Shown: piece by piece, positions 17,645-32,217 of the stretch | Numbering within the stretch: the stretch's first letter is position 1 | Layout: every line of letters begins with the position of its first letter | Source of the DNA: an uncultured Candidatus Saccharibacteria bacterium | GTDB taxonomy: Bacteria; Patescibacteriota; Saccharimonadia; Saccharimonadales; CAIOMD01 | Assembly (NCBI GenBank): GCA_964426305.1 | Contig: CAYRPO010000002.1 | Span: 1-33,146, forward strand | Reading direction: 5' to 3' | Length of the DNA: 33,146 nt | Position numbers and translations under genes: made by a program | Notes under the pieces: generated by a model | The model's input: only the letters and a program-made list of their open reading frames with translations | Databases searched by the model: none | What the model was told of the DNA's origin: nothing

Positions 17645-18286
17645 CTAGAATAAGGCCTCAAGGGCTGGAACGCTTGGTATGCGTAGGCGACCGTCAGCAA
17701 GAGTTTCGGCAAAATTCTGATGCTTTAATTTTGTCAATTCACGGCTGACCGTTTCTCGGGCTAATCCTGTTCGGTCGGCAAGCTCTTGGGTCGTAACTCG
17801 CATAGTGACGGCACCGTCATCTTCTGTGGTTCCGAATCGTTTTGCGGTCGTTACGAGCTCAAAAAGCAGCCGATCTTGCGCAGTTCCTGACATGAGGCGT
17901 GCCATCCGCTCCAGCAGGCCATCGGTTCCGCGTTGGATACGGTCGAGTAGGTCAAGTGTCACGGTGGGCTGGGTGTGCAAAAAATCAATCACGTCTGCCT
18001 GAGGGGCAAATCGTACGGTTGTTTTGATGGCGGCTTGGTAAAAATAATGATTGTCAATGCCACTAATTGCCCATGACATCGGGAAAAAGGCAGGTTTTTG
18101 TAGTATGTTGACGATCACTTTGTCCCCCTGGCCGCTGATGTCGTAGACACGGACTTGTCCGTCGACTATATACATCACACCTTTTGGTGTTTCATGCGCT
18201 AGAATCAGGTGTTCGCCTTTGGCAAAAGTTTTTGTAGGGTAGCATGCGAAAAAACTGTCAACGAGGTCTTGGACGGATCTGCTCAT
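17645..18286 (-). CDS. Crp/Fnr-family transcriptional regulator
   Basis: N-terminal cNMP-binding-like beta-roll followed by a C-terminal HTH (TQELADRTGLARETVSRELTKLK). Confidence 0.85.
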   Translation of the reverse strand: MSRSVQDLVDSFFACYPTKTFAKGEHLILAHETPKGVMYIVDGQVRVYDISGQGDKVIVNILQKPAFFPMSWAISGIDNHYFYQAAIKTTVRFAPQADVIDFLHTQPTVTLDLLDRIQRGTDGLLERMARLMSGTAQDRLLFELVTTAKRFGTTEDDGAVTMRVTTQELADRTGLARETVSRELTKLKHQNFAETLADGRLRIPSVPALEALF

Positions 18287-18339
18287 AATACATACATGGT
18301 ATCAGCTTGTTTTGTATGTGTAAAAAATATTGTTACAGT

Positions 18340-18657
18340 ATGTTTATGACAAAGTCAGTCAAAGCCAAAAAACCAGAAAAATCAGCCGATTCGCTAAGCG
18401 ACACACAGAAGCGTCAGCTCGAACTTGGCAAGATGTTGCAGTCGATGTTCGAAATGGGCTACGTCAACAAGCGCATGACCATTACTATGAGTTTTGCCAA
18501 AGGGGTTGCGAGCGGCTTTGGTGCCGTTGTCGGTGCGACGCTAGTCTTGGCGCTTGTACTGTGGATTTTGAGTCTTTTTGACCAATTCCCTTTCGTCAAT
18601 GCCATCCGCGAAGCGCTTGAGTCCGGTTCGCCGACAACTACTCAGATACCGAAATAA
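18340..18657 (+). CDS. Small membrane protein (DUF5665-like, from memory)
   Basis: In-frame ATGs at 18340 and 18346. Lys-rich N-terminus, then FAKGVASGFGAVVGATLVLALVLWILSLF. The family assignment is recollection only. Confidence 0.65.
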   Translation: MFMTKSVKAKKPEKSADSLSDTQKRQLELGKMLQSMFEMGYVNKRMTITMSFAKGVASGFGAVVGATLVLALVLWILSLFDQFPFVNAIREALESGSPTTTQIPK

Positions 18658-18726: not shown

Positions 18727-19245
18727 TTATCTCTTTGCACTGTTTTGCCATTTGGTCAGCGCAGTATGTATGGCCATTTTGAACGAAATTTCTCTATCGA
18801 CTAATTCTTTGATGACTGAAAACGTGTATGGCTCTTTTGGTCCTGCGCCAAGATATTTTCTGATTTCGGTACCGAACTCAGCCCCATCTCTAACTTGATC
18901 AGAAACTGTTCTAGGAACCGATAGTCCTGACACGGTCGAACTATAATATGATTTGCCGTCGTAGATGCATGCCACACAAACAAGCACTGCGTTTGAATCG
19001 GTCCATGCTAGACCTGCTTCTACGCCTAATGATATATCGCCTTCTCTTGTTTGTGATGAATTCCAAGCGCTGTAGGCACGATTCTTTGCTCCTGACTCTG
19101 TTTCTGCGAGGCTAGTCGGTTGGTCGCTCACTCCACTGTTTACGTCTATTGGAACAATAACACAACTGTCGAGCAAAATATTTGCTTCATTGTCTACGTA
19201 GGTAGTTTTCTGCTTACTGACTGTACCAAGATAGATAGTCATCAT
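18727..19245 (-). CDS. DUF84/YjjX-type non-canonical purine NTP phosphatase (ITPase/XTPase)
   Basis: The pattern V..SGVSDQP....ET..GA.NRA, then GVEAGL, matches the YjjX family as I remember it (VESGVPEQP...ETRAGARNR...IEAG). It is the last gene of the operon. Confidence 0.65.
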   Translation of the reverse strand: MMTIYLGTVSKQKTTYVDNEANILLDSCVIVPIDVNSGVSDQPTSLAETESGAKNRAYSAWNSSQTREGDISLGVEAGLAWTDSNAVLVCVACIYDGKSYYSSTVSGLSVPRTVSDQVRDGAEFGTEIRKYLGAGPKEPYTFSVIKELVDREISFKMAIHTALTKWQNSAKR

Positions 19246-19249
19246 TTAC

Positions 19250-20359
19250 TTATAATACATGGTTCATTTTACTTTTTTTTGTTTCGAGATATCTTTTGTT
19301 GATTTCGTTAGGTTTGACCATGTGGGGGATTACGTCGTCAATTAATACGCCCAATTTTCGAAGCTTAATTGACTTGTCAGGGTTGTTGCTAAGAAGCCGT
19401 ATACTGCATACGCCTAAATCATCCAAAACGTCTCTTACGATGTCGTACGTGCGCATCTCTGAAGGTAAACCAAGGGCAAGATTGGCGTCTACGGTGTCTA
19501 GACCTTGACTTTGCAGTTTGTAGGCTTTGATCTTATTTATTATGTTTATGCCTCTCCCCTCTTGAAATAAATAAAACAGAATTCCGCAATCTTGCCTGGA
19601 TAGTATTTCAAGGGCCAGCTCGAGTTGCTCACCGCATTCACAGTGATTGGAGAACAATATGTCTCCAGTGATACATGAAGAATGGACACGAGTTAGCACC
19701 CCTTTGGATTGACCGACATCGCCTTTAATTAGAGCTAAGTGGTAAGAGTAGTCGACTTTGGACTGATACGCTCGCAACTCAAACAACCCATATTTTGTGT
19801 TTAACTTGGTTGATTCAACAAAATCATACATGGAATACGGTTTTGCGTTGATTCGCATACCACTCAAACAATCTGTAGCCACATTTCTTACGTTTTGTTC
19901 GCCGTCAACCTCAAAAAGCGAGCTTGCTCTTGTAGAGAGTATGGTGTCAACTTTTGTGCTATTTCTGTGTGATAAATAGTATTCATCAGTGATTTTCTGC
20001 TTGTCTTCAGCTCCCTGTCCACCGTGCAGAAGATAATTTAATGAGACATTAACTCGAATGACGGTAAGTTTAGCAATAAGTTTATCGTCAACCCACCTCA
20101 CAATTTCAGAGGCTTCGTGTGGATGAATACCAAATCCTCTGATTATTAATGTCTCATTTTCGTGAGAGCTAAGTGCTTCGCGCAGCATGGATACAAGGGA
20201 TTTCTTTTCGCCTGTACTCATGTTGTGAGTGTCGATATTTTGCTTCTTTGCAAGTTCCTCCCAAGATATAACTGGTGCGTTAAGAATTCTGCTTAATTCG
20301 TATGATAGCTCGGTCTTCCCGCTTGAAGGCGCACCTAGAAGTATGACTACGTCTTTCAC
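19250..20359 (-). CDS. Fusion protein: N-terminal P-loop NMP-kinase-like domain + C-terminal GTP cyclohydrolase II
   Basis: GTG start overlapping the upstream stop (GTGA). N-terminus has LLGAPSSGKTE. C-terminus has RVHSSCITGDILFSNHCECGEQL (three Zn cysteines of RibA), EGRGINIINKIKAY, DTVDAN and RLLSNNPDK. Confidence 0.85.
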   Translation of the reverse strand: MKDVVILLGAPSSGKTELSYELSRILNAPVISWEELAKKQNIDTHNMSTGEKKSLVSMLREALSSHENETLIIRGFGIHPHEASEIVRWVDDKLIAKLTVIRVNVSLNYLLHGGQGAEDKQKITDEYYLSHRNSTKVDTILSTRASSLFEVDGEQNVRNVATDCLSGMRINAKPYSMYDFVESTKLNTKYGLFELRAYQSKVDYSYHLALIKGDVGQSKGVLTRVHSSCITGDILFSNHCECGEQLELALEILSRQDCGILFYLFQEGRGINIINKIKAYKLQSQGLDTVDANLALGLPSEMRTYDIVRDVLDDLGVCSIRLLSNNPDKSIKLRKLGVLIDDVIPHMVKPNEINKRYLETKKSKMNHVL

Positions 20360-21360
20360 TGCAATATACCCTTTTCCGTTAGATCAATTAATGTGTCAAA
20401 ATCATTGTCCGTCCATGGATGTATGAAGCTAAATGCGAACAGAGTATGTTTTAATTTGGCTGCAAATGGAAACTGAGTGCTGTCAATCGCAGAATATGTT
20501 TTATTCCAGAAAGGCGTACATTTTTTGAAATTATTTGCGGCAAATCTGTCGTACATTGCTTGAGAGTCTGAGACTATAACAGGTAGCATAGTTGGAAACG
20601 CAACCTCGTGTGTGATCATAGACGATGCTATAGCAAGTTGATTATCATCTACGGCGCGACTTATTATCGCGAACACCTTAGAAAACTCACGCCTAACTTG
20701 TTTTGATCGTTCTTCTAACTCAGTTTTATTTGGAGCCTGCAAGTCATCATCAGTTAGTGTATAGCCGCCGTATTGGGCATATCGCGGCCCAAAAGGGTTT
20801 CGTGAATCAATACCCAGATGTATGCCACTACCTTGCGAAACAGCTCCAGTATGGTATCGACGGTAGTTTTCGCTCTCGTACTCTGCTACTTCGGATGGCA
20901 ACTGAGCAATCGGCGGCATATCTACAGGATCTTTACTCACTAGAAATGCACCATTTGGTGTTAGAAGTTGTTTACGAAGACTATATATGGCAAAGGCACC
21001 CATTGGTCGTGCCCTTTCTGTACTTAGGTCAATTAAGTTATAGGCATTATCAGTTATAACTTCTGCAAACTCGTGAGCATTGGGCAAACCAAAATAGTTT
21101 ACTATGAGCGCTTCGGAGATTGAGTCGTCTTGCCTTTGACTATGGAACAGACCATCTTTAGGATTGAAAATAACATCGTAAGGATGCATTTCAATACCGG
21201 CTTGACGTAATGCTTCTAGCTCATCACCGCACGCATAGGCGGGCACAGATAAATCCATAATACCTCTTTTTACGAGAGACTCAGCGGCCTTGTGTAATGC
21301 ATTTCTTCCAAACAGGAATGGTATTGTCTGCCTGTCATCGGCGATTCTTCGTTCTGTCAT
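20356..21360 (-). CDS. DegT/DnrJ/EryC1-like PLP-dependent enzyme (sugar aminotransferase/dehydratase fold)
   Basis: FGRNALHKAAESL...LSVPAYACGDELEALRQAGIEMHPYDV resembles the DegT N-terminal layout. YSLRKQLLTPNGAFLV resembles the SFhxxKxlttgeGG Schiff-base lysine region. ATGA overlap with the upstream gene. Confidence 0.55.
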   Translation of the reverse strand: MTERRIADDRQTIPFLFGRNALHKAAESLVKRGIMDLSVPAYACGDELEALRQAGIEMHPYDVIFNPKDGLFHSQRQDDSISEALIVNYFGLPNAHEFAEVITDNAYNLIDLSTERARPMGAFAIYSLRKQLLTPNGAFLVSKDPVDMPPIAQLPSEVAEYESENYRRYHTGAVSQGSGIHLGIDSRNPFGPRYAQYGGYTLTDDDLQAPNKTELEERSKQVRREFSKVFAIISRAVDDNQLAIASSMITHEVAFPTMLPVIVSDSQAMYDRFAANNFKKCTPFWNKTYSAIDSTQFPFAAKLKHTLFAFSFIHPWTDNDFDTLIDLTEKGILQ

Positions 21361-22217
21361 ATGATCTCCACGTCATACGTGCGAGTGAGTTGAGATGGTC
21401 TAAACTGCAATTTATGATTTCGAGTTCCTTCTTCTGTGCCCAAATCACCATCATTAATTCTTGTTTTGCCCTTAGCAAAAGCAGTCTCGAAGAGGTAAAA
21501 ATATAGATACGATGAAGCTTTTGTTGTGCCAGATCGTCTAGCGTCATTTATTCCTTTGGTGATGCATGCGATAAGAACATCGTCTCTTGAAAAGTCGTAT
21601 ATCGATATACCTGCCGGCCGGTCTCTATAGTACAGAACAACACCCTGAGTCTCTGTTGTGCTTTTGCCATGTGCTATTGCCCTCATCAATGATCCTTCCG
21701 CCTGAGACCTGTCTCGAGCGTATATGTCTGCTCTTTGACTGCGCCAAAGTTCATTTACTAGTAAGGCATCTGGCAATGTTGATGTGCTTAAAGCACGCAA
21801 GACAAAATCTGGATCCTCTAGTACCTTCTTTTTATTTCGGAGTTTGGCGTACTGGGATCCCTTTAGCTCACGCATCGTTTGAACGTCATAGAAAACTTCT
21901 TGGTCAGCTCTAATTACAGGACGCGTGCTAGACCCTCCTAGTTGGCGTATTTGTGCTACCTGTGAAGGGCTGCAGAATTTGATCCAAACAGACCTAGACG
22001 ATTCCCTTGTAGTGTCTTCATTTGGAATTGAGTGTGCCGCAATGATTTCCGAGATTGGAACAATAACCTGATGTTCGCTCTGAAAACTTAGCAACGGTCG
22101 ACCATCTTGCGACTCAATCTCAACTGGGCTATGGTCTCCTGCCAAATAATGTCCGTAGCTTTCGAATTGCTCATGTACGACTTGATCTGGATCGAATCCT
22201 ACTCTGTTAATGTTCAC
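21357..22217 (-). CDS. Hypothetical protein, possible DUF2156 (MprF C-domain/VlmA-like) aminoacyl-tRNA-dependent transferase fold
   Basis: GTG start preceded by AAGGTGAGAG, with an 11-nt overlap with the upstream gene. The C-terminal part, ...YYRDRPAGISIYDF...INDGDLGTEEGTRNHKLQFRP, recalls the ...lG.s...GL..FK.KF.P ending of LPG_synthase_C proteins. Memory-based and unverified. Confidence 0.45.
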   Translation of the reverse strand: MNINRVGFDPDQVVHEQFESYGHYLAGDHSPVEIESQDGRPLLSFQSEHQVIVPISEIIAAHSIPNEDTTRESSRSVWIKFCSPSQVAQIRQLGGSSTRPVIRADQEVFYDVQTMRELKGSQYAKLRNKKKVLEDPDFVLRALSTSTLPDALLVNELWRSQRADIYARDRSQAEGSLMRAIAHGKSTTETQGVVLYYRDRPAGISIYDFSRDDVLIACITKGINDARRSGTTKASSYLYFYLFETAFAKGKTRINDGDLGTEEGTRNHKLQFRPSQLTRTYDVEII

Positions 22218-23034
22218 AAACTCTCACCTTTCGAGGAACGAACAACGGAACTTCCAGATTAGGCATAAGTCGTGTGCGTTCAATAGCTGATTCTGACCAA
22301 AAGTATATTGCATCTGGATACCCACGGTTAATCTCAGCAGCCAAATACGGATATGCTATGGCTAGTTGTTCGGAGCGAGCATCTGACATTTCGTCGCTCC
22401 AGCCCAATAGCTCCGCATAACAGATACGGTTACGCATTTTGACAATATTTAAATCGGACGGGGAATGTTTAATGAGTTCAATCGACGTGCCTTCTTCGCC
22501 CAAAGTATCGGCAAGTGTATGTATCGAGCTTAACTTGATCGCATTAAAATCAGGTGGAATATTTTTCAGTAGATCAAGAAATGTATCATGTAAATCATCG
22601 GCGTAGCTGGTTCCCTTAAGCTCATGCAGATTTTCGAGAATTAAGTCGCTAAATAGTATTGTGATAGTTGACTTAATGTCATATTTTTTTGCAAGATTTG
22701 CAATATAGACTAGTGTATTAATATTCTCCCTTGTTTTGTTGCCAATCTTGTTGTTATAGCCATATATACCTGCACCTGTTTTGTATGAGGGGCAAAATAT
22801 GCTCACTAGCGCGAGTTTTTGTAACCCTAACCCAATTTTAATTATTTTCTTACGCAGTGCAGATTCTTGAGCTACATTTAAGTAGCCGATATTTGCAAAA
22901 TCAATGAACTCCTCGTAAAATTTCTCAGCCTGAACGAGGCGAGCATTCTCTTGTTCTGTAAACAAAATCTTTTGCCTACTAACCACCTGACCTATACCAG
23001 CGTTTGATGCAACTTGTTTGATTAAAATTGTCAT
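22207..23034 (-). CDS. Hypothetical protein (275 aa), function unknown
   Basis: ATG 23034 lies 10 nt after the tRNA CCA end. No family recognised with confidence. See the findings for a speculative cyclodipeptide-synthase-like motif spacing. Confidence 0.7.
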   Translation of the reverse strand: MTILIKQVASNAGIGQVVSRQKILFTEQENARLVQAEKFYEEFIDFANIGYLNVAQESALRKKIIKIGLGLQKLALVSIFCPSYKTGAGIYGYNNKIGNKTRENINTLVYIANLAKKYDIKSTITILFSDLILENLHELKGTSYADDLHDTFLDLLKNIPPDFNAIKLSSIHTLADTLGEEGTSIELIKHSPSDLNIVKMRNRICYAELLGWSDEMSDARSEQLAIAYPYLAAEINRGYPDAIYFWSESAIERTRLMPNLEVPLFVPRKVRVCEH

Positions 23035-23044
23035 AATATTCTCT

Positions 23045-23120
23045 TGGAGCCCGAGGACAGACTTAAACTGCCGACCTGATACAAACCATGTATCCGCTCT
23101 CTCTTCTGAGCTACTCGGGC
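23045..23120 (-). tRNA. Non-canonical tRNA-Thr(GGU)-like gene with encoded CCA
   Basis: The reverse complement folds as GCCCGAG-TA-GCTC-AGAAGAGA-GAGC-G-GATAC-ATGGTTT-GTATC-AGGTC-GGCAG-TTTAAGT-CTGTC-CTCGGGC-T-CCA. That is 76 nt with all four stems intact and anticodon GGT. The D loop lacks GG, the T loop is TTTAAGT, and position 37 is T. Confidence 0.8.
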
Positions 23121-23133
23121 ATATCGTGTGGAA

Positions 23134-23811
23134 CTATATAACTTTTACTTCCCTCGCCGCAACGCTTACGTCCAAAATATCACCAAGTTCCGACAGCACA
23201 ACTTCTGGTGGCTTCGAAGTGGTGTCGATATGGCTTATGGCAAAACCAGACATTTGTAGATGACTGAATAGCCTCGGCACCGTCTCGGTATAGTCAGTAA
23301 ACCTTCTTTGAAATGATACTAGCTCATCATCGGTTCGGGCTGTGACGGTATTGCTACCACATCTGACACACGTGATCATGTCCGGTGCTTGCATATCGCA
23401 TTTTTGACAAATGCGACGCGAAGATACCCTTTGCGAAGCCTGTTCGAGGTCAACGTCAAATACTGCAACTGTGCCCGGAATTATATCGGGACGACTATTC
23501 AGCATATCATCGAGTATCTTTAGCTCTCGAGGCCACTTTGGAAAACCGTCGAATACTATATTTTCGGCTACGCATGAGCTGAGCGATCGTTCAATAATAC
23601 GAGACATGATACAACGTGGGTATTCTCTGACGGTCTCAAGATACGCACGCATGCGCTTTGACAGAGCTGTATCTTGTCTCAGTTCGTTTCTGAAGAGTGC
23701 ACCGACAGAAACATAGTCAATCTCTTGGCCGTCTATCCCTTCTATGGCCGTTGTTTTGCCAGAACCTGGAGGACCATAGAGAATATGGACTTTTTGGAGT
23801 GACTCACTCAT
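23134..23811 (-). CDS. Adenylate-kinase-family protein with zinc-type LID (divergent paralog)
   Basis: GPPGSGKTT (canonical Adk has GKGT), VSVGALFR, VFDGFPKWPREL, LID CQKC...CVRCGS, and RTDDELVSFQRRFTDY. Confidence 0.8.
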   Translation of the reverse strand: MSESLQKVHILYGPPGSGKTTAIEGIDGQEIDYVSVGALFRNELRQDTALSKRMRAYLETVREYPRCIMSRIIERSLSSCVAENIVFDGFPKWPRELKILDDMLNSRPDIIPGTVAVFDVDLEQASQRVSSRRICQKCDMQAPDMITCVRCGSNTVTARTDDELVSFQRRFTDYTETVPRLFSHLQMSGFAISHIDTTSKPPEVVLSELGDILDVSVAAREVKVI

Positions 23812-23814
23812 AAT

Positions 23815-24315
23815 TTAGCTCTCTTCAAATAGCGATAAGTCGCGGTCAACAGAAACTATCGTAAATGTTGATTTTTGATTAACAGAAACTACGTCGCCAG
23901 GTTTTTTGCCAAGAAGCGCAGCTCCAAGCGGTGTGTCATAACTGATTGTTCCATTGTCAGGTTTTCCTTCGCCGTGGCCAACGATTGTCCAAGTTTTTTG
24001 TATCCCTTTATTTGAGAGTAATTCGACGATTGATCCGATCCAAACTTCGTCGACAGGTCGTTCGCATACTGAATCTGTGTCCAGTATCACCGCTGCGTCT
24101 AAAATGCCTTGTATGCGATTCCTGCTAGTAGGAATTTCAAATTGTACTTCTGCGCGGTGTTGTTTGAACTCGGTATTTTCAGGCAAGTCTGGATCTCGGC
24201 GGGCTGCTTCGCCAATGAGACGAAACAATTCTTTTTGTCGCGCATTAAGCATTTCAAGTTGCGTGTCTAGCAGCTCGCGGCCTCTTGGTGTTAGGTATAA
24301 AGATGAATCGGACAT
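23815..24315 (-). CDS. greA: Transcript cleavage factor GreA family
   Basis: LTPRGRELL..., coiled-coil tip DLPENTEF (acidic D/E pair retained), and a C-terminal domain ISYDTPLGAALLGKKPGDVV. The track start at 24333 is TTG, so the ATG at 24315 is preferred. Confidence 0.85.
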   Translation of the reverse strand: MSDSSLYLTPRGRELLDTQLEMLNARQKELFRLIGEAARRDPDLPENTEFKQHRAEVQFEIPTSRNRIQGILDAAVILDTDSVCERPVDEVWIGSIVELLSNKGIQKTWTIVGHGEGKPDNGTISYDTPLGAALLGKKPGDVVSVNQKSTFTIVSVDRDLSLFEES

Positions 24316-24486
24316 CTGAGTATTATTCCACAATAATTAAATTATGTAAATATTATTATAGAATAGTCATATTTGAAGTATTGTATATAATCTGCATCAC
24401 ACATTTTGACTGTAAATAAAGAAAAATAGTTCCAGTGCTGCTGCATGTTTTGTGACCCAGACTTATCATTTTTACCTACACTAAAA

Positions 24487-26953: not shown

Positions 26954-27628
26954 ATGTCTAACTCAGACAACGAAACACAACCGCTGCCTGTCGAAGACGA
27001 AGAAGATGTGACTGTATCGTCAGACGATACACAAGACATTCCTGTCGTGCGTATGGGTGCGGCTGACGAGTACTTTCGGCCACAAGCAGTAGAGCCGCCA
27101 GATTTTGTCGTGAAGGCACTCGACAAGCAACAGGGCATGGTGTACCTGTTCTCGGAACAGAGAAGTAAGTGGGTACTGGTGTCGCCGATCTGTGTCATGG
27201 TCTTGGCTGTGGTCGGGTCTTGCTGGTTCTATGCAAACGGCAACCCAACAGGCGCCCTTGTGTACATCCCGCTACTTCTCGTAGCCCTTGCCGGCTACGA
27301 CCTGTTCAGTCAGTGGTTCCGGTGGCGCTACACGTGGTTCCTGTTCACATACAACACCGAATCGCGCAAATTGCATCTGCGCAAGGCCAGAAGCGTTCCG
27401 ACACTTTTGCGCTTCATCTTTGGTGACGACGAGATCAATGCAGCTGAATACAAAGACCTAAAGGTGAATACCTTTAGGGGTGGCGTCATCGATGGCCTTT
27501 TTGATCTAGTGAGCTATAAGTCGGACACCGCTGCGCAGCGGACAGACGAATGGCTCAAGGACATGCAGCACTTGCGCAATGGCAAGTACTTCAGAAAGCT
27601 CATGACGTGGGCCGGCCAGCAGGCATAA
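26954..27628 (+). CDS. Hypothetical membrane protein (acidic N-terminus, two central TM helices)
   Basis: SD GGGAG. The N-terminus has DNETQPLPVEDEEDVTVSSDD, and the TM pair is VLVSPICVMVLAVVGSCWFY / LVYIPLLLVALAGYDLF. Two TM helices plus a soluble C-domain is reminiscent of bacterial PH-like (YdbT/DUF304) proteins, unverified. Confidence 0.7.
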   Translation: MSNSDNETQPLPVEDEEDVTVSSDDTQDIPVVRMGAADEYFRPQAVEPPDFVVKALDKQQGMVYLFSEQRSKWVLVSPICVMVLAVVGSCWFYANGNPTGALVYIPLLLVALAGYDLFSQWFRWRYTWFLFTYNTESRKLHLRKARSVPTLLRFIFGDDEINAAEYKDLKVNTFRGGVIDGLFDLVSYKSDTAAQRTDEWLKDMQHLRNGKYFRKLMTWAGQQA

Positions 27629-27634
27629 TAAATT

Positions 27635-27674
27635 GGTGGGGCCAGGCGAAGTATATACTTTGCCTGGCCCCACC
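27635..27674 (+). terminator. Hairpin GGTGGGGCCAGGC-14 nt-GCCTGGCCCCACC followed by T6
   Basis: 13-bp perfect GC-rich stem whose loop is itself palindromic (AAGTATATACTT). The T-run starts 7 nt after the stem. Confidence 0.6.
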
Positions 27675-27762
27675 CAGTACTTTTTTGAACGACCAGAGCA
27701 TGGTAACTACGTTACGTGTTGTGGTTGTATCGCAAAGGTAATGCATGTTAGCAATCCTAAAC

Positions 27763-27870
27763 ACTGAAACTTTTCAGTACTTGGGGTTGCCCGGACCTAC
27801 TCGATTTTTCAGACGAGTAGGTCCGGTATCGACGTTTCGTAGTCGATTCCGCCCGCATGGCATGCGGGCG
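27763..27870. other. Cluster of four consecutive hairpins downstream of the T4SS-like operon
   Basis: Hairpins: ACTGAAA/TTTCAGT (27763-27778); CCGGACCTACTCG/CGAGTAGGTCCGG (27791-27826); ATCGAC/GTCGAT (27828-27847); CGCCCGCATG/CATGCGGGCG (27850-27870). None has a clear U-tract. Confidence 0.5.
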
Positions 27871-27880
27871 ACGTGTGTTG

Positions 27881-29353
27881 CTATGCGGCAACACCAACCT
27901 GAACTGAGCCAAGCTCTCGCAGCCGGGCTTGGATGTGTGGCAAGGTACTTACTGCAACACGGTCGGTGGCGACTTCATTTGCTGCATTGGTCTGTACCAA
28001 CGGTATTTCACTTGGCAACAGCACGTGCCTGACCCACATCATTTTCTGGCCAGGCACCAAGACCCCCCACTCTCCCACGCCGAGCTGGGTGGTGTACCAA
28101 GCATCGGCGTCGGAAGCGCCGCGCCGCGTGATTGCGTGCAGCGTGCTATCGTCTTGCTCCTGCCTGCCATATAAGCGCATACCAATGCTTCGACTCAGGC
28201 TCTGGCCAAGACCTCGCAACTCGCTGTCTTCGGCACCGACCATGGTGAAGTCGGCTTCGTTGTGCGAGACCATAATTTCGGTCCCGGGGTAGCTTCGCTG
28301 CTTGCGCAGCTTGGTATCACGAGCACGGGCATGCGCGAGGTCCTTGATTGCACTGTGCACCTCGTCGCTGGCTGTAACATTGGGGCTAAGCCTCATGTCC
28401 CATCGTTCCAACGCTGCAGCATCCCAGCGTGCGAGCTGTGCTTCAAGGATTGCGCCTGGCTTGCCTGTCACCCCCGTCCAGTCTAGATTGACCATGGGGA
28501 GCGACAAGAGGTCGTACAGGCTTCTGTTGCCGCCAAAAAGCTTACCGTAGTCCGCACGCAGTAGCTGTCCTATGATGGCGCTAAAACTGCCAGCTCCCTC
28601 CCGGAACTTTTGCTCGTCGATATTGTGCGGACGAGCAATTGCCAAGCGTAGCTGGTCAGCCAGCAGTTCATTCTCGGCACACTCTTGCGTGTATCGATGT
28701 AGTACCTCGCTGTTGCTTGCCTCGTAGTACCGATCCAAATCGGTCATGTCCAGGCCGCGTGCCTTAACTTCTAGAACCTCTGGCGAGGCAATGTCGGCAA
28801 GGTCTTTCAGCATGGTGTACACGGCAACCTGTGCTGCAAGCGTCTGATACGTGTCTAGACGTTTGCCGGTAATTGTCGTGGCGACGCCGATTGCCGTCTC
28901 TAGAATGTCCCACTCTGTCATGCCCATGAGCGGGTCAAACAAGTTGATCGAACCTTGCTCGATCAACTTGACCGTGTCGGCAAGCAGAAAGTCGGCAACA
29001 TCGGCATTCTCGCCGCGTCCCTTATTGGGCTTGCGGTCGTGCATGCGCGCTGTGGCCTCTCGGGGCAGGCCCGTCACAGGATCTGGCCCGCTTTGCAGTG
29101 CTAAAAGTCGCAAGACGAGCGACTTTACCAGTGCGGACTTACCATGTCCAATTTGGCCAAGAATCAGAAGCGTGCAGACATTGATGATGTCAAGCTTCTT
29201 GAGCAGCTGTGGGTCGATGAACACGACTTGACCTGTGCGCATCTCGAAGCCAAAGAACGCGCCAGAATCTAGCCAGCGTGGTGTTGTGCACCATGGCTGC
29301 ATCTTTGCCATTACACTGGCATCGCCCTTGAAAAACTTTCTGCTACTTCCCAT
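27881..29353 (-). CDS. VirB4-type (T4SS) P-loop ATPase domain protein, no TM segment
   Basis: Walker A ILGQIGHGKSALV, Walker B-like VTASDEVHSAI, then RSYPGTEIMVSHNEADF (the VirB4 RK..hhh.tQ..sD-like region). SD GAAGGGGA. Confidence 0.7.
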   Translation of the reverse strand: MGSSRKFFKGDASVMAKMQPWCTTPRWLDSGAFFGFEMRTGQVVFIDPQLLKKLDIINVCTLLILGQIGHGKSALVKSLVLRLLALQSGPDPVTGLPREATARMHDRKPNKGRGENADVADFLLADTVKLIEQGSINLFDPLMGMTEWDILETAIGVATTITGKRLDTYQTLAAQVAVYTMLKDLADIASPEVLEVKARGLDMTDLDRYYEASNSEVLHRYTQECAENELLADQLRLAIARPHNIDEQKFREGAGSFSAIIGQLLRADYGKLFGGNRSLYDLLSLPMVNLDWTGVTGKPGAILEAQLARWDAAALERWDMRLSPNVTASDEVHSAIKDLAHARARDTKLRKQRSYPGTEIMVSHNEADFTMVGAEDSELRGLGQSLSRSIGMRLYGRQEQDDSTLHAITRRGASDADAWYTTQLGVGEWGVLVPGQKMMWVRHVLLPSEIPLVQTNAANEVATDRVAVSTLPHIQARLRELGSVQVGVAA

Positions 29354-29482
29354 GACACATCCCCTTCGGGTGGATTGTGGGCGAACGTTTCATAACTTTG
29401 GTTGTTAAGGGATTCGGAGGTGATGTTTCGCGCACCTCAACAACGCGTCAAACACATGTAACATGTTGTTGAGATGTGAGAT

Positions 29483-29522
29483 CCCCAGAGGAGGTGCGGC
29501 TTTCGCTGCGCCTCCTCTGGGG
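29483..29522. other. Strong hairpin in the spacer between the two VirB4-like halves
   Basis: CCCCAGAGGAGGTGCG / TGCGCCTCCTCTGGGG: 15 Watson-Crick pairs plus one G.U. Two further, mutually exclusive hairpins lie at 29417-29438 and 29436-29473. Confidence 0.6.
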
Positions 29523-29545
29523 TAGTACCTCACAAACAATCACAA

Positions 29546-31123
29546 CTACAGCAGACCTATGCAGGTTGTTGCTGTCAGCATGGCGCGGAATTGCCTTGAT
29601 CGTCCAGTGACGACCGTAGCTAGTGCGCCAACGCTTTTTGCAACACCCAGCAGTCTTGCCAGATCTGCTTCCAGCTCTTCAGGATCGTCACTTGCCGCAC
29701 TCAGATACACGTCGAAGTACTCGGTGTGCCCCTTTGCTGCAAGTTCCTCTTGGCGTGCGTCGAGCGATTCGCGTCGATTTCGGGTCTTGGGTCCGAATTC
29801 GAATCCAAGCGAGTCAAGGACACTGTCAAAGATACTTGCGAACCAGCTGGTTCGCAAGTACTCGGCATTGCCGGTTGTTGACTCGCCGATCACACTGACG
29901 CTCGGCCACCTGACGCCCGAGTCCGAGAACAGGGCTGGCATGAGATTTGGCACGATGTCTCGAGGTAACTGTGTTAGTCGCACGGTTACGTGCCCTGTTT
30001 GGTCGGTGACACATGAGCTGTTGTCAGTGTAGATCCCGAACTGTGGGTGGTACAGCGGTGCCATACCTTCCGCCTCAGAGGCGATGTGCTGGTCGCGTTC
30101 CTCGCGGTACGCTTCGAGTCCGGCAACATCCCACGCTGCGCGCAGGTAATCCTCGCACTCTAGTTGATCCAAGATGTGAGGATTATGGACAGTTGCCCGC
30201 TTTAGCGCATCGCAGACATCGAGTGCCATGTCGACAATCGTTGTCCGAAGTGCTTCTCGGGGCGTGACCTCTGCCTTGCCTTTTGCCGCAGAACGCAGCA
30301 AGGGTGGACGCTGAATGGTTATGACAGCGACCATATCCACGTCGCAGCCTTCGATATTCGCTAGTGCGATTGACTCGGCTACGATTGCGCCAAGGCGTGC
30401 TCGACGAACATCTTCTTTCGAGACAAGACCCTGTTCGTACAGCTCTTCGAGCGTCTGCCCTGTCTTTGCCATGGGGACTAGAGCGGCAGGCACAAGAATG
30501 TCGGGATACGCATTCTGGTCATACGCAACTCGGATCTCCGAGGTGCTGTATGGTCGTCTACGATACCCAAAACTTACCTCGGCGGTCAGGCCGGAGTAGT
30601 TCGCAATCCGTCGTATGACACTCGCGATGACCTCTTGAGCATCGTGCATGCCCATGAGCGACATGCCAGCAATGTCGCTACCACTACTGGCAATGACGAT
30701 CGAGTCCGTGCCAGTGACGGTGTTATAGATGAGCCCAATGTCGTGCAATTTGTCGACACGAAGGGGCATTGGCACATGTCTGCGCAGTATGTCTTGACGC
30801 GGTTTCTTGCTCGGCTGCCCTGCCTCGTCAGTAGCCTTGGTCCAGTCCTCCCAAAGAGTGTCCTTCAGGTAGAGTCGAATCCACAGGCTGTAGACATACT
30901 CGCCAATGGCGTAATACCGTCTGCTCCAAAGCAGCGGCCACCACAGCCATAGTCCAATGGCAATGCCCGGAAACAAAAATGCGAATCCAAAGCGAGTCCA
31001 ACCGATCAGGTTGATCGATATGAGGACTAGTGCCATGCGGCCATCGGCGCGGTGATTGAGTTTGAACAAGTCGTAGGAGAGCCGTGTTGGCGCTTCTACG
31101 TAGGGGACAGTCTGTCCTTCCAT
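29546..31123 (-). CDS. Membrane-anchored protein, candidate VirB3-like TM + VirB4 N-terminal-domain protein
   Basis: 525 aa, SD GGAGGGTAGG. N-terminal hydrophobic hairpin MALVLISINLIGWTRFGFAFLFPGIAIGLWLWWPLLW, no P-loop. It sits immediately upstream of the ATPase. The functional call comes from architecture and synteny only. Confidence 0.45.
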   Translation of the reverse strand: MEGQTVPYVEAPTRLSYDLFKLNHRADGRMALVLISINLIGWTRFGFAFLFPGIAIGLWLWWPLLWSRRYYAIGEYVYSLWIRLYLKDTLWEDWTKATDEAGQPSKKPRQDILRRHVPMPLRVDKLHDIGLIYNTVTGTDSIVIASSGSDIAGMSLMGMHDAQEVIASVIRRIANYSGLTAEVSFGYRRRPYSTSEIRVAYDQNAYPDILVPAALVPMAKTGQTLEELYEQGLVSKEDVRRARLGAIVAESIALANIEGCDVDMVAVITIQRPPLLRSAAKGKAEVTPREALRTTIVDMALDVCDALKRATVHNPHILDQLECEDYLRAAWDVAGLEAYREERDQHIASEAEGMAPLYHPQFGIYTDNSSCVTDQTGHVTVRLTQLPRDIVPNLMPALFSDSGVRWPSVSVIGESTTGNAEYLRTSWFASIFDSVLDSLGFEFGPKTRNRRESLDARQEELAAKGHTEYFDVYLSAASDDPEELEADLARLLGVAKSVGALATVVTGRSRQFRAMLTATTCIGLL

Positions 31124-31131
31124 AGGTGCAC

Positions 31132-32217
31132 CTACCCTCCTGGTTTCTTGAATTTGCCGCCAAACCTTGAGGCAGCAGTTGCGCCCACTACCGCAACCTT
31201 TGCGACGGGGTGTGTGCTCGACGCAACCTTCATGGCTGCCATGGTAGCTCCGGCGGCTGCGACCTTCGTCCCAGCCTTAACAGATGCCTTGGCAACTTCC
31301 TTGGTCGCTTCCCTGCCGACCTCGTGTGCTGCCGCTTTACGGAAGCCACGGGCATGATTGGCATTTGTGTGCTGCTGTATGTCGACCTTATTCTTAATTG
31401 TCGACACGACTTTACCGGTCACCAGTGCGGCTACGGTGCCTTCAACCCACTTTACGCCGGAGTAGGCAACCGCAAACAGCACGAACTGCGAGATGATCGC
31501 AGCGACGTACGACATGATCGTGAATACATAGGACACGAAAAACGTACGTCCAAGCGGCATGGTGTAGATCGCGACTTGGCCCATCTCTAGGAAGAAGACA
31601 GCAAAGGGTCGACCGAACATGGTTGCGACAATGCCAAGGCTCAGAATGGCGTTTGAGAACGCCTTGCTGCGCTTGCCAAAAGCACTGATGCTGTAGGCAA
31701 GCGGACCCCAGAACCGAAACACGACGATCAGGATCTGGTAAGAGGAGATCAGCGCTGTCAGCGTTACTCCCCAGAACAAGGCAACAACCAGCCCTGTAAT
31801 CGAACCAGTTAAGCTTTGAACACCAGCGATGCCTGGCACTACTGGTGCGTCGGCCGGAGGATCATAGAAATCCATTGCTGCCGCGAAGTCATTACCAAAA
31901 GCGACCATCTCGTCTACGAGTTTGTCGAAGACTGGGATGAAAACCACGCACACGACAAAGACAAGGAATGCCTTGCCGACGCGGTCAAACTTGCGGAATG
32001 TCAGAGCCGACAAGACAACGACAAGCAGCAAGACAGTCTGGGCGTACCAAATTGCAGTGGTGTGCGCCATGCTGTACAGGTCACTCAGGTCGCCCGATGC
32101 GGTCGGTGGGTTGATGATGATCTGTTCGAACAGATCAGTCATCTTGGTGTACAGGTCGAGGAGATCGTCCTTGATTCCACCGAGTGGGTCAAGCGGGTTG
32201 AAGAACGAGGGAACCAT
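31132..32217 (-). CDS. Polytopic membrane protein, VirB6/TrbL-like, with Ala/Lys-rich C-terminal tail
   Basis: At least six hydrophobic helices. SD AGGGAGG. It sits between the pilin-like and VirB4-like genes. Tail is ...KEVAKASVKAGTKVAAAGATMAAMKVASS.... Confidence 0.5.
   Translation of the reverse strand: MVPSFFNPLDPLGGIKDDLLDLYTKMTDLFEQIIINPPTASGDLSDLYSMAHTTAIWYAQTVLLLVVVLSALTFRKFDRVGKAFLVFVVCVVFIPVFDKLVDEMVAFGNDFAAAMDFYDPPADAPVVPGIAGVQSLTGSITGLVVALFWGVTLTALISSYQILIVVFRFWGPLAYSISAFGKRSKAFSNAILSLGIVATMFGRPFAVFFLEMGQVAIYTMPLGRTFFVSYVFTIMSYVAAIISQFVLFAVAYSGVKWVEGTVAALVTGKVVSTIKNKVDIQQHTNANHARGFRKAAAHEVGREATKEVAKASVKAGTKVAAAGATMAAMKVASSTHPVAKVAVVGATAASRFGGKFKKPGG

Follow-up and report, generated by a model that had tools for sequence, protein, structure and literature searches.

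A conserved operon of CPR bacteria joins a tRNA-Thr-like RNA to GTP cyclohydrolase and an unannotated protein family

What is a tRNA gene doing inside an operon of nucleotide-metabolising enzymes? The question was raised by a 33,146-nucleotide stretch of DNA from an uncultured Candidatus Saccharibacteria bacterium (assembly GCA_964426305.1, contig CAYRPO010000002.1; the whole stretch is referred to as the window), in which seven genes and one tRNA lie tightly packed on the minus strand between positions 18727 and 24333. In the direction of transcription these encode a GreA-like protein, an ADK-like nucleoside monophosphate (NMP) kinase, the tRNA, the open reading frames (ORFs) ORF275, ORF286 and ORF334, a fusion of a kinase with GTP cyclohydrolase II (kinase-GCHII) and a DUF84 protein. 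The original prediction, made from the sequence alone, had described seven head-to-tail minus-strand coding sequences with a tRNA among them, and all the junctions it gave agreed exactly with the ORF listing and the ARAGORN coordinates (from GreA to DUF84, gaps of 3, 13 and 10 nt, an overlap of 11 nt, two of 4 nt with the sequences ATGA and GTGA, and a last gap of 4 nt). It had seen no internal terminator hairpin; two terminator-like motifs were present in the operon, both weak, which is fewer than the mean of 5.4 in shuffled sequence. In the best model, the operon is self-contained and widespread in the Candidate Phyla Radiation (CPR; Patescibacteria), and its core consists of a private tRNA-Thr-derived RNA, ORF275 and a GTP cyclohydrolase.

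The arrangement was found far beyond the window. The order ADK-like gene, tRNA, ORF275, ORF286, ORF334, kinase-GCHII and DUF84 recurred in more than 30 independent loci, which supplied the synteny in relatives on which the original prediction had been made to depend. The genome collection was scanned with a profile built from 20 ORF275-family sequences. In the protein-based search the gene order was identical in every locus found through ORF275, and the flanking genes were unrelated between loci. Carriers among the species representatives belonged to Saccharibacteria, Paceibacteria/Paceibacterota and Candidatus Amesbacteria, with one Patescibacterium and one 'bacterium' that are both unclassified. 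One further cluster lay on a 4.5-kb contig binned with a Nanoarchaeota metagenome-assembled genome (MAG; L010, JBBSXF010000060.1), and its tRNA-like sequence was identical to that of a groundwater metagenome contig (L015). The Nanoarchaeota occurrence, based on this one short binned contig, may represent either real DPANN or a mis-binned CPR contig. The overall picture suggests that the operon is horizontally mobile.

The tRNA-like gene (23045-23120, minus strand) was called by ARAGORN as tRNA-Thr(GGU). The window copy has the anticodon GGU, U73 and an encoded CCA end, its minimum-free-energy fold is a cloverleaf, and it scored 96.8 bits with a covariance model of its own family, as the single copy in the window. 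The same gene was present in every gap between ADK and ORF275, including copies that ARAGORN missed or miscalled. A scan of the metagenome collection that used the 5' half of the RNA alone returned 24 stretches, 23 of which had ADK directly upstream and/or ORF275 directly downstream; the remaining one (L027) was rejected as an ordinary high-G+C tRNA-Arg that fitted the degenerate pattern by chance, leaving 23 of 23 true matches in the operon. Across 26 distinct orthologs, 98.7% of the cells in the cloverleaf alignment were paired (7-bp acceptor, 4-bp D, 5-bp anticodon and 5-bp T stem). Covariation was pronounced, with 83 double-change cells relative to 24.7 in shuffles, a value above all 500 shuffles; all five anticodon-stem pairs covaried, and the pairing collapsed when the 3' partner was slid by 1-3 columns.

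The pattern of conservation separated two parts of the molecule. G35-U36, G1-C72 and C2-G71 were each present in 26 of 26 sequences, and U73 was invariant among them. The D arm was conserved throughout as UAGCUCAG[C/A][A/U]GAGAGAGC, with a near-invariant D loop AG[C/A][A/U]GAGA, and GG at positions 18-19 occurred in no copy. Among copies with 7-nt anticodon loops, position 34 was A, U, C or G in 11, 8, 3 and 1 copies, respectively; position 33 was U in 16, A in 6 and G in 1; and position 37, where canonical tRNA-Thr carries A37 as the site of N6-threonylcarbamoyladenosine (t6A), was U in 14, A in 8 and C in 1. Three copies had anticodon loops of 8-9 nt, positions 32 and 38 varied too, and C56 was replaced by A or U in 7 copies. 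Threonine identity resides in acceptor-stem pairs and anticodon nucleotides (PMC9976931). Set against a canonical elongator tRNA-Thr, the RNA thus has the cloverleaf and, at the sequence level, the identity elements for threonyl-tRNA synthetase (ThrRS), and it lacks G18G19, often lacks U33 and a purine at 37, and has neither a fixed anticodon nor a fixed 7-nt loop. The exact identity pairs assigned to it are those of E. coli. With the identity elements retained and the loop features lost, the RNA appears to have kept what ThrRS needs but not the features required by the ribosome and by the t6A machinery; judged from position 34, the orthologous RNAs are without a common codon specificity, and the RNA is probably a charged but non-decoding aminoacyl carrier. 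The 'private odd tRNA' of the original prediction was strongly borne out by matches restricted to the operon, a covarying cloverleaf and non-canonical loops.

Rfam recognised the RNA unevenly. With the general tRNA model (RF00005), 15 copies in the searched loci scored 49.6-63.3 bits compared to 67-72 bits for neighbouring normal tRNAs, and the copies of the window, L001-L003, L006, L018, L023 and L036 were not reported; in a recheck at E<=10, those of the window, L003, L006, L018, L023 and L036 were still missing. The L003 copy, however, differs little from the L004 copy, which scored 51 bits. Non-detection by Rfam was consequently downgraded as a sign of strong atypicality, given near-identical orthologs at about 51 bits, and the absence of the window copy from the output probably reflects filtering, since such orthologs score 50-63 bits. 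For this RNA, detection by the standard pipeline is erratic.

In every locus, only 3-11 nt separated the 3' end of the RNA from the start codon of ORF275 (23035-23044 in the window; L001-L036), and no Shine-Dalgarno sequence was seen by eye at any of the tRNA/ORF275 junctions. The ADK-like gene was directly upstream in all loci. The ADK frame of several loci (L001 9295-9969, L006 1132-1806, L007, L008, L009 and L012) has its stop codon within the tRNA gene, often at the UAG formed by U8-A9-G10, and in L004 (14-574) it traverses the entire tRNA. Processing of the tRNA 3' end would give a near-leaderless ORF275 message, and RNase P cleavage would strip the ADK stop codon where the frame ends inside the tRNA.

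ORF275 (22207-23034, minus strand) is the founding member of an unannotated protein family, and it was the strongest lead that the original prediction had missed: a new family, found with three types of GTP cyclohydrolase and in fusions with ADK, NDK (nucleoside diphosphate kinase) and transferase domains. The window protein had no sequence match in Pfam, NCBIfam or PDB; no Pfam family matched any of 51 members, and a broad profile of these 51 sequences found nothing in PDB. A word-indexed protein search gave only 6 relatives per query, and an exhaustive hidden Markov model (HMM) search of 1.84 billion cluster representatives retrieved only 95. The AlphaFold model had a mean predicted local distance difference test (pLDDT) score of 89.9. 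Its best Foldseek match was IsnA/PvcA (E 3e-6, template modelling (TM) score ~0.5), followed by the catalytic domains of class-I TyrRS and TrpRS, cyclodipeptide synthases (CDPS) and PP-loop enzymes, and a viral structure library returned the same fold class weakly (TrpRS, CysRS and tRNA-dependent CDPS, none significant). The model thus resembles a Rossmann (HUP) fold of the class-I synthetase/CDPS/IsnA kind. The nearest folds belong to enzymes that bind an amino acid or the acceptor end of an aminoacyl-tRNA (aa-tRNA).

Invariant residues of the family (C81, P82, Y84, G98, E134, Y206 and R220) were located after the beta-strands of the Rossmann core, the usual active-site position in such folds, and an alignment of 20 sequences showed the conserved motifs CPSYK (after strand 1), DLxLEN and WSESxxER. 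Cys81, a residue of the nucleophile type, presumably occupies the position of the acyl-accepting serine of CDPS and of the synthetase HIGH motif. Membership in the known families was nevertheless rejected. As a class I aminoacyl-tRNA synthetase, ORF275 would be without HIGH and KMSKS, neither of which was seen by eye in the 20-sequence alignment. As a CDPS it would have a family match in none of 51 members, TM scores of 0.39-0.51 in two structure libraries and, after strand 1, an invariant Cys in place of Ser; sequence similarity to synthetases and CDPS was absent, the conserved residues were others and no CDPS serine motif was seen by eye. The likeness to IsnA/PvcA (DIT1_PvcA), although the best structural match, was confined to the fold, with no PF05141 match in the 51 members and no IsnB-type dioxygenase partner in any ORF275 locus.

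Gene fusions and reduced versions of the operon showed which parts belong together. ORF275 and ORF286 formed a single polypeptide in P0009, P0021, P0023, P0028, P0037, L004 and L011; fusions of ORF275 with ADK were seen in P0030, P0033 and P0048, and one with NDK in P0065. Because of the ADK-ORF275 fusions, the ADK-like gene is a genuine component of the system and not a housekeeping bystander. A shorter cluster (L021, 5473-8946 of the 184-kb contig Ga0265296_1000088) comprised ADK, the tRNA-like RNA, ORF275, kinase-GCHII and DUF84. ORF286 and ORF334 are both missing from it and were therefore regarded as an accessory pair, which makes sense if the aminotransferase makes an amine that the transferase acylates; and since L021 keeps the tRNA together with ORF275, ORF275 was taken to be the obligatory partner of the tRNA.

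In more distant contexts, ORF275 kept company with a GTP cyclohydrolase of one type or another. L037 has GCHII followed by an NDK-ORF275 fusion. L038 (669-3737) begins with an atypical tRNA-Val-like RNA, followed after 7 nt by a FolE2-type GTP cyclohydrolase IB (GCH-IB), a CYTH protein and an ORF275-ADK fusion; the RNA has the anticodon UAC, A73 and CCA, no GG in the D loop, and some of the valine identity elements (A35, A73). The last gene of L038 was read as NDK from a truncated 37-aa ORF. L039 and L040 contain ORF275, CYTH, ADK, a split GCH I and a further ADK; L041 and L042 contain CYTH, ORF275 and GCH I amid housekeeping genes, which in L041 are those for RRF, RseP and RNase Y; and L043 contains FolE2, ORF275 and a 669-aa protein with a methyltransferase domain. 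In L044 (311-3418), ORF275 was observed between two different GTP cyclohydrolases, preceded by a FolE2-type enzyme and followed by a 481-aa protein that has a GCHII domain. A GTP cyclohydrolase adjoined ORF275 in seven of seven distant contexts, where nucleotide kinases and either DUF84 or CYTH as NTP phosphohydrolase were usually present too, and type I, IB or II was next to ORF275 in every context examined. The general theme is thus ORF275 with a GTP ring-opening enzyme and enzymes of NTP supply and trimming, often with a private tRNA-like RNA.

For ORF286 (21357-22217, minus strand) and ORF334 (20356-21360, minus strand), the window proteins had no match in Pfam, NCBIfam or PDB sequence searches (for ORF286, PF09924 gave none at E<=0.1), and both were assigned through matches and profiles of their orthologs, ORF286 also through structure prediction. 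Ten of 12 ORF286 orthologs matched PF09924 (LPG_synthase_C; best 2e-10), and the ORF275-ORF286 fusion proteins scored 25-36 bits, around the cutoff of 27.5. The AlphaFold model (pLDDT 86.7) matched the DUF2156 structure 2hqy best (E 9e-14, TM 0.73), and L-PGS, A-PGS (the lysyl- and alanyl-phosphatidylglycerol synthases), MprF soluble domains and FemX at 1e-11 to 1e-10, with TM 0.6-0.73 across the DUF2156, aaPGS and FemX matches; the aa-tRNA-dependent peptide synthases Sbb17/Sba18 were also in the list. The C-terminal motif NDGxLGxExGTxxHKxxFxP resembles the DUF2156-family signature GLRxFKxKFxP. ORF286 is accordingly predicted to be a soluble tandem-GNAT homolog of the DUF2156/LPG_synthase_C-type aminoacyl-tRNA transferases, in agreement with the MprF-C-type transferase first proposed. 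It shares the fold and the ortholog matches to PF09924 with MprF and the other aminoacyl-phosphatidylglycerol synthases (aaPGS), but unlike MprF it is without a membrane or flippase domain and, in the window, lies below Pfam detection, and the genes that accompany it suggest that its acceptor is soluble and derived from a nucleotide, not a lipid. For ORF334, a profile of 10 orthologs matched DegT-family sugar aminotransferases in PDB at 2.2e-13, and in that alignment K130 falls on the Schiff-base lysine; 6 of the 10 orthologs matched PF01041 (best 3.7e-24), and the PLP-binding aspartate D104, S127 and K130 were invariant. By its sequence relatives, ORF334 is a divergent DegT/DnrJ/EryC1-type aminotransferase dependent on pyridoxal 5'-phosphate (PLP), as had been supposed.

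The remaining enzymes were recognisable by direct searches. The kinase-GCHII fusion (19250-20359, minus strand, 369 aa) matched PF00925 at 1.9e-55 (187 bits, residues 183-344) and the RibA model NF001591 with 220 bits, well above its cutoff of 148, which settled the assignment of a GCHII fused to a kinase. The zinc cysteines C229/C240/C242 as well as the catalytic residues Y280 and R303 were conserved in 13 of 13 orthologs; we equate them with E. coli C54/C65/C67, Y105 and R128 through our own numbering offset. The N-terminal domain matched PF00406 (ADK, P-loop) in orthologs, and the kinase P-loops were invariant across orthologs, as were the arginines and cysteines of the ADK lid. GCHII and the kinases thus look like active enzymes, to judge from retained residues. 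Like RibA and RibBA, the protein has a complete GCHII domain with its zinc and catalytic residues, but unlike RibBA it carries a P-loop kinase in place of 3,4-dihydroxy-2-butanone 4-phosphate (DHBP) synthase, and GCH I or IB takes its place in relatives. ribD, ribE and ribH were found neither in the window nor in the examined locus flanks (up to 10 kb), and a housekeeping role in riboflavin synthesis was judged a poor fit to the missing rib neighbours, the kinase fusion and the swapping of GCH types. The ADK-like protein (23134-23811, minus strand, 225 aa) matched PF00406 at 4.7e-15 and scored 96 bits with TIGR01351 (cutoff 168); its P-loop, R41, R128/R132 and the lid cysteines (a zinc lid) were conserved in 25 orthologs, and by eye it reads DGFPK in place of DGFPR. 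A housekeeping Adk was rejected on account of the score below the equivalog cutoff and the altered NMP-site motif, although the Pfam ADK domain is present. The DUF84 protein (18727-19245, minus strand, 172 aa), identified as such in the original prediction as well, belongs to the NTPase_I-T family of YjjX-type ITP/XTP pyrophosphatases (PF01931, 9e-22) and its gene closes the cluster wherever the locus is complete, with a CYTH triphosphatase in its place in distant versions. ADK, GreA and DUF84 all scored below the NCBIfam equivalog cutoffs.

From gene content, RNA features and folds, we propose that the operon carries out a tRNA-dependent threonylation of a GTP-derived metabolite, a reading to which a probability of roughly 40% was assigned. 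The ADK-like kinase and the kinase domain of kinase-GCHII would hold guanine nucleotides at the triphosphate level, and GCHII would open GTP to 2,5-diamino-6-ribosylamino-pyrimidinone 5'-phosphate. The tRNA-like RNA would be excised from the polycistronic transcript and threonylated by the housekeeping ThrRS through its acceptor-stem and G35/U36 identity elements. It would stay off EF-Tu and the ribosome through its altered D, T and anticodon loops; it would be kept out of translation because G18G19 is absent, U33 is often missing, position 37 is often not a purine and the wobble base is not fixed. ORF275, with its invariant Cys81, and ORF286 where present would then use Thr-tRNA as an activated donor, the acceptors being amino groups on a scaffold derived from the GCHII product, one of which ORF334 may install from a keto (Amadori-type) form. 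DUF84 would take pyrophosphate off, or clean up, a non-canonical NTP.

The link between ORF275 and the cyclohydrolases could have a chemical basis. IsnA condenses the amine of an amino acid with the keto group of ribulose 5-phosphate. All three cyclohydrolase types would pass through a ribosylamino-diaminopyrimidine, which may rearrange to a ribulose-phosphate-like ketone, the type of substrate used by IsnA; an analogous keto-sugar phosphate from ring-opened GTP products would, speculatively, explain the linkage. In its widest form, which we regard as slightly less probable than the threonylation itself, the proposal is that a private, decoding-retired tRNA acts as activated amino-acid carrier, or even as assembly scaffold, for an aminoacylated ring-opened purine- or pteridine-type molecule, with ORF275 as the key catalyst tied to all three GTP cyclohydrolase types, in CPR and possibly some DPANN archaea.

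Several observations weigh against the threonylation pathway. The recognised aa-tRNA transferase is dispensable, as shown by L021, and the partner of the tRNA is then ORF275, for which the fold matches are moderate (TM ~0.5, ~10% identity). Relatives of ORF275 pair with GCH I, GCH IB and GCH II, which have different end products, so that a common acceptor is not obvious, and several of the distant ORF275-GCH modules have no tRNA nearby. Many of the RNA copies, at 50-63 bits on the Rfam tRNA model, are close to ordinary tRNAs. The encoded genes include no exporter or obvious final target, and the acceptor and product named above are guesses.

Of the other explanations, an unlikely one, though the one that survives best, makes ORF275 itself a minimal ligase, which would charge the private RNA ATP-dependently with a non-threonine group (a GTP-derived compound or another acid), with ADK/NDK recycling AMP and ADP, and ORF286 passing the group on. 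The catalytic domains of TyrRS, TrpRS and CysRS among its fold neighbours would suit such an enzyme, the fusions to ADK and NDK fit one that releases AMP, the tRNA and ORF275 persist together in L021 without ORF286, and the ORF275 start always follows the tRNA at 3-11 nt. What counts against it is that CPSYK, rather than HIGH, follows strand 1 and no KMSKS was seen by eye, that a protein of 275 aa is probably too small to contact the invariant G35U36 as well as the acceptor end, and that the Thr-type and Val-type RNAs fit standard synthetase identity sets, which leaves charging by ThrRS and ValRS as the simplest assumption.

Hardly more doubtful than the ligase is the possibility that the RNA is mainly a cis signal, either an RNase P/Z site that splits ADK from a near-leaderless ORF275 message or a ThrRS-binding operator that would make translation of the operon respond to threonine or tRNA status, and that the enzymes form a GTP-derived (pterin- or flavin-like) cofactor or salvage route without use of aa-tRNA. 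The short distance from the RNA 3' end to the next start in every locus, with no Shine-Dalgarno sequence seen, agrees with this, as do the RNA of L038, which lies 7 nt ahead of another first gene, FolE2, the ADK frames that end within the tRNA in several loci, and the ORF275-GCH modules without a nearby tRNA. A precedent exists in the tRNA-Thr mimic in the leader that controls E. coli thrS (PMC9976931). That operator, however, is without an acceptor arm, whereas the operon RNA has a perfect 7-bp one, and a processing site needs no invariant G35U36, conserved U73, encoded CCA or covarying anticodon stem; moreover, two genes further on lies the gene for a homolog of aa-tRNA transferases, which in several lineages forms one protein with ORF275.

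A conflict system, the alternative already raised in the original prediction as a nucleotide-targeting defence module, was judged improbable. It would make a toxic or signalling nucleotide analogue directed at phages, hosts or competitors, the kinases lifting a modified NMP to the NTP, and DUF84 or CYTH providing self-protection or a switch. The window cluster is a compositional island with flanks that differ per genome, CPR bacteria live on host cells, and NMP kinase, NDK and NTP pyrophosphatase together recall systems that produce nucleotide analogues, such as chain terminators of the viperin type. PADLOC 2.0, however, returned nothing at E<=0.01 for the seven proteins and so lent the defence module no support; no gene of effector, sensor or immunity type is present, the distant L041 sits among housekeeping genes, and the gene order is kept across several CPR classes.

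Far less credible is a cassette of the Sec/Pyl kind, in which tRNA-bound threonine would be remodelled by kinase and PLP enzyme to a non-standard amino acid for proteins. The placement of a tRNA gene among biosynthetic genes for kinases and a PLP enzyme of fold type I does recall pylTSBCD and the PSTK/SepSecS route, and with pylTSBCD the operon shares an atypical tRNA gene and the character of a mobile cassette. It differs in that neither a fixed suppressor anticodon nor a PylS-type synthetase of class II is present, and decoding seems unlikely; the wobble base varies among A, U, C and G, U33 and purine 37 are often absent and three loops have 8-9 nt, which is incompatible with conserved decoding, while the PLP enzyme is missing in L021 and GCHII would be left without a role. 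That the housekeeping genes greA, adk, tRNA-Thr, ribA and yjjX and three orphan ORFs are neighbours by chance, an idea owed to the housekeeping members of each annotated family, is barely worth entertaining given identical order in more than 30 loci of several CPR classes, the gene fusions, a tRNA variant confined to the operon context, and ADK, GreA and DUF84 scores below equivalog cutoffs.

For tRNA-dependent threonylation, the closest functional analogy is the non-proteogenic tRNA-Gly of staphylococci with its Fem transferases. In S. aureus this tRNA is charged by the normal GlyRS, binds EF-Tu weakly and is recognised by the Fem transferases via its D and T arms (PMC7826273). As in the Staphylococcus tRNA-Gly/FemXAB/FmhB system (PMC7826273), the operon has an extra tRNA paralogue that keeps its synthetase identity, together with a GNAT-fold transferase (ORF286 matches FemX). 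It differs in that the tRNA is embedded in the operon, has Thr identity and a degenerate anticodon loop (33, 34, 37 and length), is partnered by nucleotide enzymes instead of cell-wall genes and, in L021, outlasts the transferase. The streptothricin-type pathways of Sbb17/Sba18 likewise have an aa-tRNA-dependent GNAT-type transferase that acylates a small-molecule amine, often partnered by a DegT-type aminotransferase that generates this amine, but they use ordinary cellular tRNAs, occur in large-genome actinomycetes and have no GTP cyclohydrolase or dedicated tRNA. PacB and VlmA are further aa-tRNA-dependent enzymes of nucleoside and peptide antibiotic pathways. A puromycin-like aminonucleoside route was rejected as a loose analogy only, with no dehydrogenase present.

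The GreA-like gene (23815-24333, minus strand, with a TTG start; ATG at 24315) stands apart from the rest. Its product, of 172 aa from the TTG or 166 aa from the ATG, has C- and N-terminal GreA domains (PF01272, 1.2e-17), scored 80 bits with the NCBIfam GreA models, under their cutoffs, and has by eye a DLPEN tip motif that aligns with DLKEN of E. coli. The gene was upstream of ADK in Saccharibacteria-type loci and in L006/L007, and elsewhere or inverted in L008, L009, L021 and L036. Because its position moves and flips between loci, GreA was treated as a linked neighbour with no demonstrated pathway role, a correction to the seven-gene pathway of the original prediction. In L001 (7197-9292, a Saccharibacteria MAG), two GreA-family genes were observed upstream of the cluster, with an unannotated 299-aa gene between them; the one linked to the operon may be an additional copy. 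The top promoter-like site of the minus strand was directly upstream of the GreA ATG and is a candidate operon promoter (24322-24350, minus strand; the best sigma-70-like match, TTTACA-17-AATAAT with TG, a consensus match only). As its -10 element stops about 7 nt before the ATG at 24315, GreA may start at this ATG rather than at the TTG at 24333, possibly on a leaderless transcript.

The G+C content of the operon was 42.7%, compared to 51.1% in the remaining window, in line with the lower value noticed originally, and the G+C content at third codon positions (GC3) was 34-42% in the operon relative to 50-63% in flanking genes, with GreA equally low in G+C. The operon including GreA is thus a compositional low-G+C island in the window genome, which suggests recent horizontal acquisition. 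Downstream, the surroundings of a small DUF5665 gene (18307-18657, plus strand) were similarly low in G+C. A Crp/FNR-type regulator with a cyclic nucleotide (cNMP)-binding domain and a helix-turn-helix (HTH) lies directly downstream of the operon (17645-18286, minus strand); the family of the CYTH domains seen in distant versions of the system includes cyclases. Further away, the region 26954-32217, originally described as type IV secretion system (T4SS)-like, contained four sizeable ORFs without a Pfam match, of 224 aa (plus strand) and of 490, 525 and 361 aa (minus strand).

The components of the operon are recognisable, but the combination of a private tRNA that probably does not decode, a new family tied to GTP cyclohydrolases, nucleotide kinases, an NTPase and an optional aa-tRNA transferase fits no known system, and the literature searches turned up no account of the cluster or of ORF275, nor of a CPR operon with a tRNA-Thr-like gene embedded in it. 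CPR/Patescibacteria have tiny genomes with almost no biosynthesis, and conservation of the operon and its RNA across several classes with such genomes argues that both are important for the CPR lifestyle. For enzymology, a family without a Pfam model in constant partnership with GCH I, IB or II points to new chemistry on ring-opened GTP, and the parts of the operon are all small and soluble, which makes reconstitution and direct identification of the product feasible. If the proposed carrier role is true, Thr-type and Val-type tRNA-like carriers would mark different versions of the system, and the operon would represent a tRNA paralogue retained for charging, freed from decoding and encoded in the operon of its own user, an extension of the tRNA-Gly/Fem paradigm.

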